Positions 1,817 to 14,433 of a stretch of 64,000 nucleotides of DNA are shown piece after piece (within the stretch, counting starts at the first letter, position 1; every line of letters starts with the position of its first letter). Under the pieces are notes generated by a model. The model had not been told where the DNA came from, made no database searches, and saw only the letters and a program-made list of their open reading frames with translations. The translations under genes were made by a program, and so were the position numbers. This DNA comes from a virus. Its lineage: Duplodnaviria; Caudoviricetes. The stretch lies in IMG/VR virus record IMGVR_UViG_3300032038_000001, positions 160,001 to 224,000 of that record; one strand, written 5' to 3'.

Positions 1817-4273
1817 GTGATCAATTTGCCGGCTAATAATAAAAAAGCAGGTAGTAAAAAATCTAATACTGAAATTTCTGAATTAGAAAGAGCATCTTCT
1901 ATATTAAAAGATAAGAGTGTTAGAAGAAATCTATCTCAAATTGAAAATATATTAGGTCAAGCAAATTTAAACTTATACGGTACAGACAGAACTTCTGAAG
2001 TAGATACGTTGAATTCTAAATTTCAATCTCTTCTTCATGAAGAAATAGGTGTTTTGACTCAAAAGGATGACGAAGATGTAACGTCATTTATTAATAAATT
2101 ATATTCAGCAGATAAGAAGAGTACCGCTGCTTCAAATCTTTTAGATAATCAATTTGTATCTATGACTGGAGAAGAAGTACAAGCAGTACAAGGATTTTTA
2201 TATGATGTATATAGAAATAGACTTCTTGAACAAAATGACCTTCATGAGGTTGCTTCTCAACTTATTGAATTAAGTGAAGCGATATTAATAACTCGTGATG
2301 CGATAGTTTCAGCTGATGTAGTTGAAGGACGTATGTCTAGAACTCTTAAATTTGATAAAATTGATCAGGAAGATGCTGAGAATACTTTACCAATAGTGGA
2401 GTCTCTTGAGAAACGATTCTCGCTTCTTGAAAAAATAAAAAACTTTGTTATACCAAAAACTCTTGAATATGGAGAGTACTATGCATATTGTATTCCATAT
2501 TCAAAGATTTTTAATGATTTTATGAAAAATAAAAATAATACAAAGACTGGAAATATGTATAAAGAAACATCTTTATACGAAAGTGTTTCAGATAACACTG
2601 TTACCCGAAGTGGCAATAAAAATAGTAATAAAAGTAATAAATTTATTGATGATATTTTCACGGAATATGTTAGTAATTTTCCTGAAAGTAAACAAAGTGA
2701 AATAAAATCTAAAGAAAAAGAATTTAAAGAAGATGTCTCTAATATTCTTAAAAATATAATAATATGTAATGATTCAGTTCCACTTCCTGTAATGGAAGAA
2801 GGGTTTGCTTCAATAAAAACATATATGGATGAATATGTTAATGAAAGTGGTGATACATTTACAGAAGCAAAAACCGTAAGGAAAGATAAGAAATCAGTTG
2901 ACTCTTTATTTAACAAGATAATCAATGATGATACAAAAAATGGTATCACATTTGTTGATGATACAAAATCAAAAGGAAAAGCTAAAGATGACTTTTCAGA
3001 TATCAAGGATTGCTATCTTAAACTTATAGAACCTACTAAAATTATTCCTGTAAAGATAATGAATCAGACTATTGGGTATTATTATGTACAAGAAGAGGAT
3101 ATCACACCTCTTGCTGGAATGATTTCATCAACTTTATACTATAATAAATTTGATGAAGCAAATCAGCAGCAATCTATAGTTGATTCTATTGCAAAAAGAA
3201 TAGTAGATTGTTTTGATAAGGATTTTCTTAAAGATAATATAAAATTTAAGGAAACAATAGTTGAGGCTATTAACTATTATAATTTAAATGAAAAAAGACT
3301 TAAATTCCAGTTCATTCCTGTAGAGTACATAGTTCCTTTCAAGATTGACCAAGACGAGTATGGTAATGGACAATCAATGATAAAGAAATCATTATTCTAT
3401 GCTAAACTTTATTTAATGCTTCTTCTATTCAAAATCATGTCTATTATATTAAATAGTAATGACCAAAAGGTAAACTATTTAAAAACATCTGGTATTGATA
3501 AAAATGTAGCTAATAAAGTACAAGAGATTGCACGTATAAAACAGTCACGTCAAATTAATATGTATGATTTATTTAATTATACCACATTAATCAATAAGGT
3601 GGGTAACGGAACAGAAGTCTACATACCTACTGGTAGGTCTGGTGAAAGACCTATTGAAACAGAGATTTTATCAGGCCAAGACGTACAGTTAAATAGTGAA
3701 CTTCTTGAAATGTTAAAGAACTCATATATACTGGGAACAGGTGTTCCTGCAGCTATTATTAACTATTTAAATGAAGCAGATTTCGCTAAAGTCATCGAAC
3801 AAAACAATACTAAGTTTAATGGTAGAGTAGTTAACTATCAACTCGATTTTAATCCTAGTATAACTGAATTATATCAAAAGATAATGAGATGGTCAACAAA
3901 TATACCGGATCAAATGGTAGACAATTTTGAATTCGCATTACAACCTCCTAAAACAGTTGCATCTACTGCTAAAGGTGAAGCTATTAATGCATTCAATCAG
4001 TTGGTTGAATTTGTTGTTGGTATTAAGTATGGTGACCCTGGTCAGGCCGAAGCTGATAATCCCAGTATAAATAAAGAAATAAGAAGATTTAAAGAACTTT
4101 ATGCTGCAGAGCAACTTCCTCTTCTTAATATGGATAGGATTAATAAACTATGTGAGCAGGCTGCTATTGATGTTAAAGAAGAGACTCTCAAGCCTAATCC
4201 TAACAATGGTGATAATGGTGAAGATGATGGTATAGACGGTCTTGACTTAGACGGTGAAGAAGGAGAAGAATAA
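1817..4273 (+). CDS. portal protein (jumbo phage type)
   Basis: 818 aa; T4 gp20-like features (GQSMIKKSLFYAKLY, ..GVP..), acidic C-tail; next to tube/sheath; late promoter. Confidence 0.7.
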   Translation: MINLPANNKKAGSKKSNTEISELERASSILKDKSVRRNLSQIENILGQANLNLYGTDRTSEVDTLNSKFQSLLHEEIGVLTQKDDEDVTSFINKLYSADKKSTAASNLLDNQFVSMTGEEVQAVQGFLYDVYRNRLLEQNDLHEVASQLIELSEAILITRDAIVSADVVEGRMSRTLKFDKIDQEDAENTLPIVESLEKRFSLLEKIKNFVIPKTLEYGEYYAYCIPYSKIFNDFMKNKNNTKTGNMYKETSLYESVSDNTVTRSGNKNSNKSNKFIDDIFTEYVSNFPESKQSEIKSKEKEFKEDVSNILKNIIICNDSVPLPVMEEGFASIKTYMDEYVNESGDTFTEAKTVRKDKKSVDSLFNKIINDDTKNGITFVDDTKSKGKAKDDFSDIKDCYLKLIEPTKIIPVKIMNQTIGYYYVQEEDITPLAGMISSTLYYNKFDEANQQQSIVDSIAKRIVDCFDKDFLKDNIKFKETIVEAINYYNLNEKRLKFQFIPVEYIVPFKIDQDEYGNGQSMIKKSLFYAKLYLMLLLFKIMSIILNSNDQKVNYLKTSGIDKNVANKVQEIARIKQSRQINMYDLFNYTTLINKVGNGTEVYIPTGRSGERPIETEILSGQDVQLNSELLEMLKNSYILGTGVPAAIINYLNEADFAKVIEQNNTKFNGRVVNYQLDFNPSITELYQKIMRWSTNIPDQMVDNFEFALQPPKTVASTAKGEAINAFNQLVEFVVGIKYGDPGQAEADNPSINKEIRRFKELYAAEQLPLLNMDRINKLCEQAAIDVKEETLKPNPNNGDNGEDDGIDGLDLDGEEGEE

Positions 4274-4320
4274 ATTCGTAAAATAAAAAATTATAATGAT
4301 ATATTATATATGTGTAATAA

Positions 4321-4450
4321 GAAGATTATAAGCCACGTATAATCTTCACCCAGATAAACTAAGTTTAACATCAGACTGCAGCTGATGTAGAAATCTTAAA
4401 TTATGATGCTCGTGGCTTGCCGGCTTACATAATTTGAGATTCACTTAGTT
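4321..4450 (+). ncRNA. candidate structured RNA (hairpin plus three-way junction, loop-loop complementarity)
   Basis: stems 4321-4330/4338-4347, 4357-4364/4443-4450, 4368-4374/4382-4388, 4392-4405/4428-4441; loop AGCCACG (4331-4337) complementary to CGTGGCT (4411-4417); ATATATTAT at 4299-4307. Confidence 0.6.
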
Positions 4451-4511
4451 ATATTATATCGAAAAAGGAGTGAAAAGGTAGTTATATTATATCGAAAAAG
4501 GAGTGAAAAGG
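4446..4511 (+). repeat. exact 33-bp tandem duplication containing an RBS
   Basis: tagttatattatatcgaaaaaggagtgaaaagg at 4446-4478 and 4479-4511. Confidence 0.95.
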
Positions 4512-4540
4512 ATGATTAATAGAATCAAAATTCCCTGATT

Positions 4541-4587
4541 AGACCGCACGTATTAATATCAATTAATACGTGCGGTCTTCTTTTTTT
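4541..4587 (+). terminator. intrinsic terminator of the small cassette
   Basis: agaccgcacgtattaat / attaatacgtgcggtct followed by a T run. Confidence 0.85.
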
Positions 4588-4646
4588 ATATTTTTTATAA
4601 AAAAAATGATGGTGAAAGTAATACTTTCACCATCATTATTATTTTT

Positions 4647-5564
4647 TTAGGTAGTGGACTCCCAGGTACTTGCAGGTAATACTGCATTCGATGTACCCGT
4701 TTCTACTTTTTCTAAAAGCTTACCAGTCTTAACATCATAACTCTTACCATTACCATCATCAACGTCAACAGTAAACCCACTATAGAAGTTAAGCGAGTTA
4801 GCAAGCATTTTATATTTTTCAAGTAACTTACAAGCCACAACGTTAATCTGAATCGATTCGTATTTTGTACATGTAAAGTTGATATCAACGTCTACAATAT
4901 TATGGGTACCTGACTCATAGTTGAATGCATCAGTATTTATACCCTTAGGGAAGCAGTTGGCAAGTAAACAAGCATATTCAACTTTTTCACCAGTGTTATC
5001 AGTAGCAACATAGATAAACTCTGCTGTCTGATTAGACTGTTTTCTCTTAATTGAAGGGTCAACTCCATGATAAGTTGCTAAACCTGTTAACAGGTCAGTT
5101 GTACCATTAATCCATGTATGAAGAACTTCACGAATAGGTGAACCTGAGAACTCATAAACCTTAACAGTAAATTCATTGGTGCCGTCTTCAGCTGCCATAG
5201 GTATTTCAAACTGTTTACCTACATAGCCACCTTTAAGAGGTTCAAAGTTAACAGAAACATCACCTATACCAGAAACTGCGGTATTACCATATTCGAGTAT
5301 ATGCTTAAATATAGCCATCTGAGGAGGCATGAGTTCTGAAACAAATAAAGGTGTTCTAACCATAAATAAACGGCCATAACCGGTCTTAAGAGGATCATAC
5401 TTTTCAAGTACATCATGAGTGACATTAGTACCGCCTAAAAACAGTGCGTATTCAGTCAGTGATGCATCCTGAAAGGTTTTCATTGAACTGCCGCCACCCT
5501 GAATAGAATTGTTGTGACTAATACTATTATTAGTAGAGCTATCTGCCTGTGCATATTGTGCCAT
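4647..5564 (-). CDS. tail tube protein
   Basis: 305 aa directly downstream of the sheath; tube-like pattern (FTVKVYEFSGSPI..W, NCFPKGI, VDVDINF). Confidence 0.75.
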   Translation of the reverse strand: MAQYAQADSSTNNSISHNNSIQGGGSSMKTFQDASLTEYALFLGGTNVTHDVLEKYDPLKTGYGRLFMVRTPLFVSELMPPQMAIFKHILEYGNTAVSGIGDVSVNFEPLKGGYVGKQFEIPMAAEDGTNEFTVKVYEFSGSPIREVLHTWINGTTDLLTGLATYHGVDPSIKRKQSNQTAEFIYVATDNTGEKVEYACLLANCFPKGINTDAFNYESGTHNIVDVDINFTCTKYESIQINVVACKLLEKYKMLANSLNFYSGFTVDVDDGNGKSYDVKTGKLLEKVETGTSNAVLPASTWESTT

Positions 5565-11115: not shown

Positions 11116-11513
11116 TTAAAATCCGTTTATATTATTGAAAAAGCTCAGGTCTATAGAACCATCTGTATCATCGTCCATCTGTTCAATTATTTCTCCAGGT
11201 GTATTATTATAAACCGTGTTTTGAATTTCACCAGCTTTTACTAGTTTATATGTATCTTTCTGTGCTTTAATAGCAGCTTCTTTCATTAACTGTTCCCATT
11301 GTTTCTGTTGTTCTATTTGTTGCTCTTGTTTTTTTACCGACTCTATCAACCTAGGATCAACTAATGATGGATCGATTTCAGAAGCATGTTTCAATCCTTT
11401 ATTCTGTTCATCTTCGTTTAATTTACCTTTAATAATTCCAAATACAGGGAGATTATTACCATGATAGTAAACATAAAGGCACATTAGATAGCTCATTACA
11501 GAGTCATCATGAA
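11116..11513 (-). CDS. terL: terminase large subunit, exon 2
   Basis: splicing gives ..KIEAGPG-F-HDDSVMSYLMCLY, restoring the RNase H-like nuclease HDD motif in frame; spliced product 709 aa. Confidence 0.9.
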
Positions 11514-12701
11514 CAATATAGACTATATCATCATCTTCATATTCTATTATCAAATATGAAGAGCTCCCCATTTCGTTTTAATAGAATTACATATGGCTAA
11601 TATCACCATAAAACTAACCTATAAATAGGCACTACTCTACTCACTTCTTTACTTAAGTATTTCTCTTAAGCTATGCTTTCGATAGTCGTTGAACCTTGCT
11701 CTTAATAAGAGCCTTGGCTGCGGATTGTCTCTATTCTTAACCTTTTTACTATACCTAAGGAATTACCCTTCGCCACTAATATAAATATTAGTTTAGTAGT
11801 TAAGACCTAACGAGAGTTCCCCGCAATTAAAGGAGTTTATCCCGGTCCTCATGATGACTGTTTTTAATTTTTGATTTTATATATTTAACTCGTCCCCTAT
11901 TAAGTTCGGTATATTCCCAACCCATTTTTATCACCGTCTCTTTAACAGAATGATTTTTTAATAATCTTTCAATTTTTTTTATTTCTTCATATGATAAAAT
12001 GGAACTGAATTTTCTAATCTTTGGGAAATTGTAATTTTTACTAATAGATTTCCAGGTATCTCCACGCCTTATGTGTAATATAAAATCATACCCATATCCA
12101 TATTTAGCTTGGATTTTTTTAGGTGACATACCGGATTCTAAAAGTTCACATACTTTTTTAACATCTTGCTTTGTATGTGTAGATAAATTACATGTTTCAG
12201 AACCAACTATATTTGGACTTTTTAAACCATTTTTATATGCCCTAGAATTATTTTCTGAATAGGTACACCATTCTAAATTGTCTAATTTATAATTCATTTT
12301 ATTTCCATCCAGATGATCTATCACAGAATAATTGTGAGGATTTTCAATAAATGCGTTAGCAACTAGTCGGTGTATGGTTTTAGTTTTATATTTACCTTTT
12401 TTACCTAGTTGTATATTGATAGCCGGATATTGTAAACTTCTGGAGGATGGATTCATGTTAATCTTAAGTTTTTTATTAGTCTTAATATTATATACATTTC
12501 CATCCTGTGTTATCATATAATTCGTATCTTTATCATTTATAGTTATTATTTTACCAATGACACCATTTTCGAGTAATATTAATGATGAATAAAAACACGA
12601 ATCATAATTTCTGATAATATAAATATATGACATTAAATCAACTCCTATTAAATAATTATTGACTTGTTGTGCATGTATTTATCCAGATTACATTTTTTTT
12701 G
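11514..12701 (-). mobile_element. self-splicing group I intron (IA2-like) in terL, 1188 nt
   Basis: P AATTGCGGGGA (11828-11818), Q AATCCGCAGC (11726-11717), R TTCAACGACTATC (11693-11681), S GATATAGTC (11529-11521), P3 CTCCTT/GGGGAG; exon 1 ends in U (12702), intron ends in G (11514); IGS at 11859-11841. Confidence 0.93.
11827..12633 (-). CDS. intron-encoded HNH homing endonuclease (NUMOD4/I-HmuI-like)
   Basis: YMITQDGNVYN, IHRLVANAF, IDHLDGNKMNYKLDNLEWCTYSEN; own RBS and late promoter 12657-12668. Confidence 0.9.
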   Translation of the reverse strand: MSYIYIIRNYDSCFYSSLILLENGVIGKIITINDKDTNYMITQDGNVYNIKTNKKLKINMNPSSRSLQYPAINIQLGKKGKYKTKTIHRLVANAFIENPHNYSVIDHLDGNKMNYKLDNLEWCTYSENNSRAYKNGLKSPNIVGSETCNLSTHTKQDVKKVCELLESGMSPKKIQAKYGYGYDFILHIRRGDTWKSISKNYNFPKIRKFSSILSYEEIKKIERLLKNHSVKETVIKMGWEYTELNRGRVKYIKSKIKNSHHEDRDKLL

Positions 12702-14433
12702 AACCGGGTCCGGCTTCAATTTTACCAGATGATGTCCTTATCAATCTCGATATATCTCTTGTTATGTTTTGAGTAATAAATTTTTCTTTATATTCTTGAA
12801 CATGTCTTACTAGAATAGCCATCATATCTTCACGAGATTTGGTACCTGTATAAACTCCATAATATGATTTCATTGATGCTTGTTTTTTAAGCATGGATTC
12901 AATAGTACCAGATGCTATCGCATTATCTTCAACTAAATCTTTAGCTCTATCATAATAAAGATTTGCACGTATTCTACTATTAAGAAGATGGTCTATAATA
13001 GAATCACCAACACTATTTCTTTCGATACATAATACTGCTCTAGGTAAAATACTTATTAGTTCTATAAGCAATGCCTCAAATTTTGTTTCACCAATATATG
13101 AACATTCAAATTCAGCTTCTACTTCTAACGTATATGGATTTAATATTGTAATAGCATTATTATCTCCGTTAGTTCCCGTTGAACAGTCAACGCCGATAAG
13201 ATAAGCTGTGCGTGGATTGAGTTTTTTGTATATATCAAATCTATAATATTCAAGTAACCACATTTCATCTATTGGTTTATGAGCAATCTCAATAAGATAT
13301 TGAATATCTTCTTGATTAAATGGAGAAAGTGATGAACCGTGTAATCTTTGAAGTAGTATTTCACGTCTTACTGTCAAGGGATCTCCAATTTTAGCAGATA
13401 TATTTTTTAACCAATCTTCAGTTAGTCCTATTTGATAATACTGATATTCTATATAAAGAATCTTGTTACAATCTTTACCTTGTGAATCTATGTATTCCTG
13501 TATTTCTTCTTCGGTCATATCATAAAGACGTTCGGTCCATTTAGCAGTCTTATCTAAAATCTCCTGTGCCTCTTGACCAGCGGGTGAATCAAGATCTCCA
13601 GGTGTGCTAGTAAATATACGAGCATACATAGCACCATTCGCTTTAGCTCTAGCTGCTGCAGTTTCATATGTGGATACTGAGTTTGCTACTATAGTTTTTA
13701 TATGAGGTGTAAACTCAGCCTCATCGAAATGCTGTATTGGCGATGTAAGACCTCTAGCTAATGATAATGCTGTATCATATGATGTTGCTTTAGCTTTAGT
13801 GATAATAGTATTACCATTTATAGGATGTCCCATTTTTGTAGCATTATTAGTTGCTTTTGTAACCTTGCCATCATCATCAGTAAATGATTCAAATCTTAAA
13901 TATTCAGGTAAAAATCTTATTTGGTCACCAGTTCTCTTAAGATTTGTTTTACTATCTTCACCTGATTTATTTATGTATATAAATTGAGATTGTGAAGTAC
14001 CAAATGAGTACATCCATGTTTCCATAGCAATTGCTGACTGCGTTTTACCTTGTTGACGTGTTAAATTTAACCACGAGTCTAAACCATGTAAAATACACCA
14101 TGCCTGTGCAATATTACCTCTATTTGCCTTATATGGCACAGCAGTACCACCTGGATCAGGAATTCTGGATATTTCACGAAGATAATACCAAGGATTTCTC
14201 ATACATTCTGTCATAATTCTAGTTATTTGATCTTGCGTTAAATTAGTATGACCATCAGGTCCAACAGAGAACGGGTTAATATTTACCAAACTATAATCAT
14301 ATATCTCAAGCATAAAATAGCAATTTTTGATTCCAACTGTTTGTAAATCTTTTGCAACCTGCAAAAATGACCTATTCTGTGTTCCTAAGTCATATAACTT
14401 ATCATCTATTCTTGCAATACGAGATTTAGCCAT
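12702..14433 (-). CDS. terL: terminase large subunit, exon 1
   Basis: Walker A TRQQGKT, Walker B QHFDEAEF, coupling motif FTSTPG, nuclease IGVDCSTG and CIERNSVG. Confidence 0.92.

Follow-up and report, generated by a model that had tools for sequence, protein, structure and literature searches.

Several described systems share features with the locus reported here. The phi29 pRNA is essential, its structure is conserved at 12% sequence similarity, and both of its interlocking loops are carried on arms of one three-way junction (PMC5066667). Kissing and palindromic loops are found in ROOL, GOLLD and OLE, RNAs of phages or Bacillota without known function, and ROOL is non-essential (PMC12286853). 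In CreT of P. aeruginosa, a small RNA toxin of the tRNA-sequestering type that works through proline codons, a hairpin protects the RNA (10.64898/2026.06.02.729485); tandem rare or tandem proline codons define CreT. RNA anti-CRISPRs include the Racrs (PMC10651486), rAcrVIA1 and rAcrIIA1 (10.64898/2026.06.03.729762), and viral crlRNAs (10.1101/2024.10.29.618823). Leaderless communication peptides such as SIP/RopB are products of very short ORFs, and pairs of this kind were not found in phages in PMC10518010.

As judged from sequence comparison, the locus described here encodes an undescribed small structured RNA, probably an early one, that contains a conserved mini-ORF; it is present so far in one clade and is unrelated to portal function. 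With ROOL, GOLLD and OLE it shares a palindromic loop and probable kissing loops, but it is four to six times smaller, with three helices and one probable pseudoknot, lacks an Rfam match and occurs in a narrow clade, and its multimers are only predicted. With CreT it shares an SD sequence, a very short ORF with rare codons and a proline before the stop, and a stable 3' hairpin. It differs from CreT in having a single CCC before the stop, 7–8 codons and no two consecutive rare or proline codons, in its early phage promoter and the large kissing-loop domain upstream, and in lacking CreA and a CRISPR-cas locus, its flanks being portal and tail tube genes. Because the codons that define CreT are absent, the cassette may work like CreT without being one. 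The lambda bar minigenes, likened alongside the CreT toxins, have a similar short-ORF layout.

The 8-codon ORF with its SD, its mostly aliphatic peptide and the Bacillota setting also recall SIP/RopB. However, the peptide has Lys, Pro and polar residues and the genome has no Rgg, RNPP or AimR receptor. A communication peptide or arbitrium role was rejected because no RRNPP receptor was found in the complete genome; searches of it with TIGR01716, PF18768 and PF22871 gave no match, and each of them matched its control genome.

Genomic context

The window, by which we mean the whole stretch of 64,000 nucleotides that was analysed, is part of a complete genome of 250,395 bp and 31% G+C from an AR9/PBS1-like jumbo phage. 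Kinship with AR9, PBS1 and Staphylococcus phages points to a Bacillota host, and record names suggest the ruminant gut as habitat. The genome has three tRNA genes, Lys(TTT), Ser(TGA) and Gln(TTG), at G000:C1:49533–49695 and 91584–91654. The spacer between the portal gene and the convergent tail tube gene, behind which the sheath gene comes, is 373 bp long and holds the RNA cassette and a second, bidirectional terminator. The cassette consists, in order, of an early-type promoter, a fold of about 137 nt (P1 and a three-way junction), an SD, an ORF of 7–8 codons and a terminator. Features of the window are as follows.

1785–1796: late-type AACA-N6-TA motif ahead of the portal gene (motif match)
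1817–4273, plus strand: portal gene, 818 aa (portal vertex proteins from AR9, PBS1 and jumbo phages of Staphylococcus matched by tblastn)
4277–4313, plus strand: putative early-type promoter, with CGTAAA box, core and 6-nt spacer (match to the AR9 consensus)
4277–4282, plus strand: CGTAAA box, upstream promoter element that recurs with other promoters of the genome
4299–4307, plus strand: early core motif ATATATTAT, followed by N6-G
4314–4320, plus strand: predicted 5' end of the transcript, able to pair with 4452–4458 (helix P0) only in the alleles of the window and L146
4321–4347, plus strand: hairpin P1, 10 bp (4321–4330/4338–4347), loop L1 AGCCACG (4331–4337) (folding, alleles)
4348–4356, plus strand: single-stranded linker J12, 8–11 nt across alleles (56% identity)
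4357–4450, plus strand: three-way junction domain with closing helix P2 (4357–4364/4443–4450) (folding, alleles)
4363–4394, plus strand: CRISPR-repeat-like stretch of 32 nt with ends GTT...GAAAT, a weak lead
4365–4391, plus strand: arm P3, 7 bp (4368–4374/4382–4388), loop ACUGCAG (4375–4381) (folding, alleles)
4392–4441, plus strand: arm P4, 14 bp (4392–4405/4428–4441), with motif CGUGGCU (4411–4417) complementary to L1
4446–4511, plus strand: 33-bp tandem duplication (4446–4478/4479–4511) (sequence)
4499–4503, plus strand: functional SD AGGAG, 8 nt ahead of the ATG
4512–4538, plus strand: mini-ORF, MINRIKIP-stop (SD, ATG and frame kept in alleles)
4541–4587, plus strand: intrinsic terminator of the cassette, 17-bp stem and U tract (terminator search)
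4605–4637, no strand: bidirectional terminator adjoining the tube gene, equivalent to the one feature present here in cassette-free relatives
4647–5564, minus strand: tail tube gene, convergent with the portal gene (PHROG tail tube, Pfam PF23806)
12688–14433: large terminase gene (matches to terminase large subunit families)

Elsewhere in the window, a group I intron match at 11501–11912 (minus strand; 46.1 bits, E 3e-10, slightly below the gathering threshold) is located downstream of the large terminase ORF and adjoins an HNH endonuclease gene (ORF 11827–12633); the terminase gene is probably split by an intron.

Distribution among relatives

The same interval was fetched from about 45 loci of relatives by means of their tube and portal proteins. 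Among these, the cassette was found only in phages whose portals are 97–100% identical to that of the window, with six distinct RNA alleles in two subclades: the window and L146 in one, and L001, L028, L147 and L153 (L001-type) in the other. In sister phages with portals 80–84% identical (L032, L034, L036, L161, L167), a bidirectional terminator of 48–60 bp is all that is present at the site, an absence that holds for the portal–tube site. Other relatives have unrelated genes there: a 94-aa orphan that follows the same promoter in L037 (4904–5379), a 220-aa orphan in L002 (4995–5810), and two BspA-type LRR ORFs in L005 (5000–5892). By this comparison the element is an accessory insertion. The portal–tube junction, where two operons converge, is a hotspot for such insertions, and a place next to the portal gene is therefore no sign of a role in packaging.

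In three loci of a more distant clade (L018:4903–5042, L022:4819–4950, L023:4903–5035), a spacer of 130–138 bp follows the portal terminator and contains an AT-rich promoter-like stretch, an SD, small hairpins and a shared CCAAGCCTAATG motif; it is possibly another micro-cassette, unrelated in sequence to the kissing-loop RNA. The terminator of the L001 type (L001:4972–5030, minus strand) has a tip 16 nt longer that contains AAAGAACGAT, which also starts the terminator of the sister lineage (L032:4891–4940). This tip may be the footprint of an insertion or a recombination event.

No homologues were found outside the clade. Scans by pattern across collections of viruses, metagenomes and genomes returned the L001 clade and chance matches, one of the scans giving single matches only among the matches listed. 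Covariance models recovered L001 only from 21 related records, and a covariance model gave no match in seven near-complete, more distant genomes; the best extra covariance-model match, L208, was rejected as it is inside a DNA polymerase gene. These searches are blind to relatives with changed loop sequences. The comparison with Rfam that the earlier note on this DNA had called for returned no significant family for the window and L001 alleles, nothing coming near a gathering threshold (generic hairpins, a plant snoRNA, and CRISPR-DR13 at E 1.3).

Predicted early promoter and transcript

An early-like motif had been pointed out at 4299–4307, and it does fit the AR9 early promoter consensus, AAATATATATTAT-N6-G, which was mapped by experiment (PMC5312081). 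Eleven of 13 positions match, the predicted +1 is G4314, and the promoter is kept in all six cassette alleles. Copies of TATATTATAT inside the cassette (4450, 4483) were rejected as promoters, having neither the N6-G start nor the upstream box. The strong terminator proposed behind the mini-ORF is present at 4541–4587 and shows one C-G to U-A double change plus wobble changes across alleles. Helix P0 is not predicted in L001-type alleles. The RNA gene is probably expressed early.

In having its own early-type promoter and terminator, the element agrees with the stand-alone RNA of the earlier note, with one qualification that concerns the portal transcript. The terminator search of the spacer found none between the portal stop and the early promoter, and late portal mRNA should therefore read through the element as well. 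The element should thus occur in two forms, as a stand-alone RNA made early and as the 3' end of the late portal mRNA.

Nine other transcripts of the genome have the same promoter class, with structured leaders of similar length and unrelated cargo genes, so that promoter, folded leader, SD and cargo constitute the normal early layout of this phage.

The nine copies of promoter plus leader, about 200 bp each and fused at the ATG to unrelated genes, are outside the window (loci L109–L112), on the minus strand of G000:C1 near 12517, 13464, 14464, 90026, 91461, 131751, 132480 and 133707 and on the plus strand near 103408. This leader has a long 5' hairpin, in which a core (AACTTCATAG...GAAGG) is conserved; the hairpin is followed by two crossing stems, GUGGU/ACCAC and CUCUGUUU/AAACAGAG, and these by the SD. 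The leader has no Rfam match. Its GUGG/CCAC helix is similar to the central part of the probable L1–L4 kiss described below, perhaps by coincidence. A second copy of the kissing-loop RNA was not found in the genome.

Similarity to a cultured phage is confined to the early promoter region of Listeria phage LPJP1 (L026:5001–5049), and the matches that blastn gave among GenBank phages were all AT-rich promoter stretches, this one among them. This suggests an extended promoter motif common to AR9-like phages.

Predicted fold and its conservation

Folding of 4318–4455 gave a z-score of −5.4, and none of 200 shuffles was equally stable. Two elements read earlier from the letters, a perfect 10-bp hairpin with loop AGCCACG and a three-way junction having an arm with the palindrome CUGCAG in its loop, are reproduced as P1 and as P2 and P3. 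Two extra pairs, U-A and Y-G, probably close the junction on the far side of an A-A mismatch. The proposed 14-bp arm with CGUGGCU is present as far as its stem and motif are concerned, but its tip is not a tidy 7-nt loop; it is a larger loop or a weak 2-bp helix.

Fourfold-degenerate sites of the flanking genes, which are 83–89% identical between the subclades, served as the neutral reference; at this level the invariance of a 7-nt loop is by itself uninformative. In P1 the loop is invariant in all six alleles, the stem shows U-A to U-G and G-C to G-U changes, and one terminal pair is broken in L028. In P3 the loop ACUGCAG is invariant, one whole G-C pair is gone on both sides in the L001 type, a U-A pair is U-G in L153, and the junction pair is U-G or C-G. 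The 3' strand of P2 is 89% identical between the subclades amid two strongly diverged segments. P4 has 38% identity between subclades and still pairs, over 14 bp or, in the L001 type, 11 bp, with the tip motif CGUGGYU in all six alleles; its double changes, read from an alignment fitted to the structure, stem from a single replacement and are counted once. Every substitution in the interior of the P1, P2 and P3 stems is compatible with wobble pairing, and pairs are broken only at stem ends. In the fitted alignment 98% of cells are paired, a value reached by none of 500 shuffles, and an unfitted alignment also recovers P1, P2, P3 and the two pairs closing the junction. The comparison of portal-to-tube spacers suggested in the earlier note has thus supported the fold, nearly all stem changes keeping the pairing. 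On this comparative evidence the structured RNA is real, under selection and undescribed.

Probable pairing between the loops

Loop complementarity of at least 7 nt arose in 5 of 1500 dinucleotide shuffles (0.3%), which is locally significant but amounts to an event of about 10% across the 37 long spacers of the genome, so that the case for a kiss rests on conservation. The statement that such GC-rich complementary loops are unlikely by chance is accordingly correct for the locus and only suggestive for the genome as a whole. The L1–L4 duplex has an energy of −10 to −12.5 kcal/mol. L1 is invariant, and L4 varies at one position, where C is replaced by U and a G-C pair becomes G-U; a compensatory double change across L1–L4 was seen in none of the six alleles. 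The kissing-loop RNA that had been proposed is therefore probable in its loop–loop pairing, with one compatible change to its credit and no double covariation, and we regard L1–L4 pairing as likely to form. Only one other site in the genome could pair through CGTGGCT, C1:52262, and it is inside coding sequence.

The mini-ORF

The 8-codon ORF MINRIKIP at 4512–4538 had been noted earlier and given too little weight, considering that none of the six alleles has lost the SD, the start or the frame. The RBS duplication noted with it is indeed present in the window, as a 33-bp repeat, but it is absent from the five other alleles, including that of the nearest relative, L146, while the SD is retained in all. 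The peptides of the relatives are MIGIKIP, MFTIIKIP, MITIIKIP, MIAIIKIP and MFAIIKIP. Despite a rewritten upstream spacer, the SD is 8–10 nt before an ATG in frame with IKIP-stop in every allele; L146 has an in-frame deletion of 3 nt, and stop codons swap between TGA and TAA. Codons 2–4 change freely. The last four codons (IKIP) are invariant and include ATC (11% of Ile) and CCC (9% of Pro), the rarest Ile and Pro codons of the phage. There are no synonymous changes in these codons among the alleles, so that constraint on the RNA and constraint on the peptide are inseparable. At 85%, the identity of the ORF is no higher than the neutral 83–89%, and the case for translation thus comes from the SD, the start and the frame and not from any surplus of conservation. 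No other mini-ORF/terminator unit was found in the genome; MFKSV, considered as a second mini-ORF, was rejected because it is the end of a 362-aa gene.

Discussion

The reading that we tentatively prefer, at somewhat less than even confidence, is that of an early RNA of CreT-like layout whose pseudoknotted 5' domain is protective and whose effect comes from the translation of its mini-ORF. The accessory early unit would have entered one tight clade of AR9-like jumbo phages at a point after the portal stop codon and ahead of the older bidirectional terminator, and the virion RNA polymerase would make from G4314 an RNA of about 240–275 nt. Its first ~137 nt would fold, as conservation indicates, into P1 and the three-way junction, and the P4 loop would most likely fold back onto the P1 loop in a kissing pseudoknot of 7–8 bp. 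The compact domain could shield the 5' end from 5'–3' decay and the terminator hairpin the 3' end, giving an abundant, stable RNA with its SD outside the fold. Ribosomes would translate the 7–8-codon ORF, and the translation event itself may be the output. CreT and minigene RNA toxins reportedly slow termination or tie up tRNA or ribosomes, and the rare Ile and Pro codons with Pro-stop beside a hairpin might do likewise. Alternatively, the output may be the short hydrophobic peptide itself. Either output would help to shift host translation or defence early in infection. Protection from decay, the effect on translation and the activity of the promoter are what we infer in taking translation as the effector.

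This reading is favoured because the layout equals that of the nine other early units, with the mini-ORF as cargo. SD spacing, ATG and frame persist in six alleles whose spacer before the ORF is rewritten, through an in-frame deletion and a stop swap and with an invariant rare-codon ending; the fold has the support of both alignments; and this is the sole mini-ORF/terminator unit found in the genome. The arrangement of SD, mini-ORF, Pro-stop and hairpin matches that of P. aeruginosa CreT (10.64898/2026.06.02.729485). Against it stand the neutral level of ORF identity with codons 2–4 free, the absence of the tandem rare or tandem Pro codons that CreT requires, a three-way junction and an invariant palindromic loop that exceed the needs of a protective leader, the lack of homology between this RNA and the nine-copy leader beyond the promoter, and the need of a lytic phage for ribosomes of its own.

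The analogy with a phi29 pRNA-like prohead ring working with the neighbouring portal, which the earlier note had drawn, now appears extremely improbable. It appeals to the position behind the portal gene, to the three-way junction and two complementary loops of a phage noncoding RNA of about 120–140 nt, and to a length similar to that of pRNA domain I (PMC5066667). It fails on distribution, motor type and topology: the element is dispensable, being absent at the site in relatives with 80–84% identical portals and unmatched by the covariance model in the seven more distant genomes; the phage has a large terminase and not a phi29-like gp16 ATPase motor; and L1 is on a separate 5' hairpin instead of a junction arm. 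The 7–8-bp kiss, the extra palindromic loop and the mini-ORF that follows are further differences. The earlier suggestion of a riboswitch or self-cleaving ribozyme organised by kissing loops fares little better, and we hold it to be highly improbable. Purine riboswitches, cobalamin riboswitches and hammerheads often have a three-way junction with loop–loop contact, and CUGAUG and GAAA are found near the junction in the window allele. Yet no Rfam riboswitch or ribozyme matched even at E 5–10, the hammerhead-like C is missing in the L001 type and stem II is lacking, hardly any nucleotide of the junction is unpaired, no regulated gene is downstream, and SD and terminator are outside the fold, where opening the kissing loops alters neither in folding. 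By eye, against consensus features, the hammerhead, hairpin ribozyme, T-box, anticodon mimic, 16S complement and sgRNA were all dropped, since core elements were missing or not conserved. An antisense target was sought among 228 phage start regions, none of which rose above shuffled controls. Self-association independent of the portal, in which P3 palindromes would homodimerise and L1 and L4 would pair between molecules into rings or networks, seems to us rather unlikely, even though natural RNA multimers are built by conserved symmetric kissing loops (PMC12286853). In its favour, the palindromic P3 loop is invariant even across the stem-length change, its self-duplex has −8.7 kcal/mol, cofolding prefers a P3-exchanged dimer by about 16 kcal/mol, and the path through P4, kiss and P1 (about 31–36 bp by rough geometry) would be long for an 8–11-nt linker and P2, so that an intramolecular kiss would need strong bends. 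However, no palindrome-to-palindrome switch is seen among the alleles, an invariant 7-nt loop is unremarkable at 11–17% background divergence, the P3 loop can also fold as a bulged A and a C(UGCA)G tetraloop, favourable cofolding is expected of any palindromic hairpin, and self-association is compatible with the other readings and by itself supplies no function.

The main rival, although we think it unlikely, is that the folded RNA itself is active as a decoy, to be bound by a defence protein or an RNA-binding protein of the host, and possibly as a structural mimic of crRNA; the mini-ORF would then serve only to load a protective ribosome. In the crRNA-mimic form P3 would possibly be the repeat hairpin and P4 a pre-paired spacer. 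At its ends and in its length the stretch at 4363–4394 resembles a repeat, and its alignment with Rfam CRISPR-DR13 runs from end to end; the subclades diverge exactly after GAAAT; and the segment that follows in the L001 type, 35–37 nt, has the length of a Clostridium I-B spacer. As in RNA anti-CRISPRs, an accessory intergenic phage RNA behind a promoter has a hairpin unit of 30–32 nt with GTT...GAAAT ends and then a variable segment of 35–44 nt. The intergenic place, a strong early promoter just upstream (within 250 bp), the absence of adjacent cas genes and the patchy distribution fit Racrs (PMC10651486), and rAcrVIA1 mimics crRNA with negligible sequence similarity (10.64898/2026.06.03.729762); a structure-only mimic of that kind is a candidate. 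On the other hand, the CRISPR-DR13 score (17.9 bits, E 1.3) is half of the gathering threshold of 37 and was not recovered for L001, and the 19/30 match of the L001 allele to a published Clostridium I-B repeat (PMC4022347) is equalled or beaten at 53 sites of the genome. Similarity to repeats is thus not significant and far below solitary-repeat thresholds; as a solitary repeat unit the stretch was rejected, with 17.9 bits against at least 41.1 for SRUFinder, in a comparison with a few repeat families. Moreover, the unit is inside the three-way junction with both ends buried in junction helices, L147 lacks the 5' GTT, no sgRNA layout, second repeat or target was seen, and divergence from inside P4 is also expected from conservation of the junction. 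Another view, that of an emptied cassette in which promoter, leader, cargo and terminator lost the cargo, start was fused to stop, and the fold is a relic or decaying, we find doubtful. The site takes promoter-plus-gene cassettes in other relatives, the other leaders of the genome are fused at the ATG to unrelated genes, and the clade is young, with portals 97–98% identical; but nearly all recent stem changes within subclades leave pairing possible, several indels have left SD and frame in place, and no locus was found with the RNA ahead of a long gene. A composite, a self-assembling counter-defence RNA that joins a dimer or network RNA, a CRISPR-repeat-like decoy arm and a Pro-stop mini-ORF slowing host translation, is very unlikely.

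The RNA can be tested directly, being about 140 nt long, or 275 with the ORF, and its natural alleles are ready-made compensatory mutants. If the fold is a decoy for Cas or other defence proteins, RNA anti-defence would extend to lytic jumbo phages and would include mimics missed by searches for repeat similarity. If, as in the reading that we prefer, the mini-ORF is the effector, a lytic phage would be using a CreT or minigene strategy offensively.
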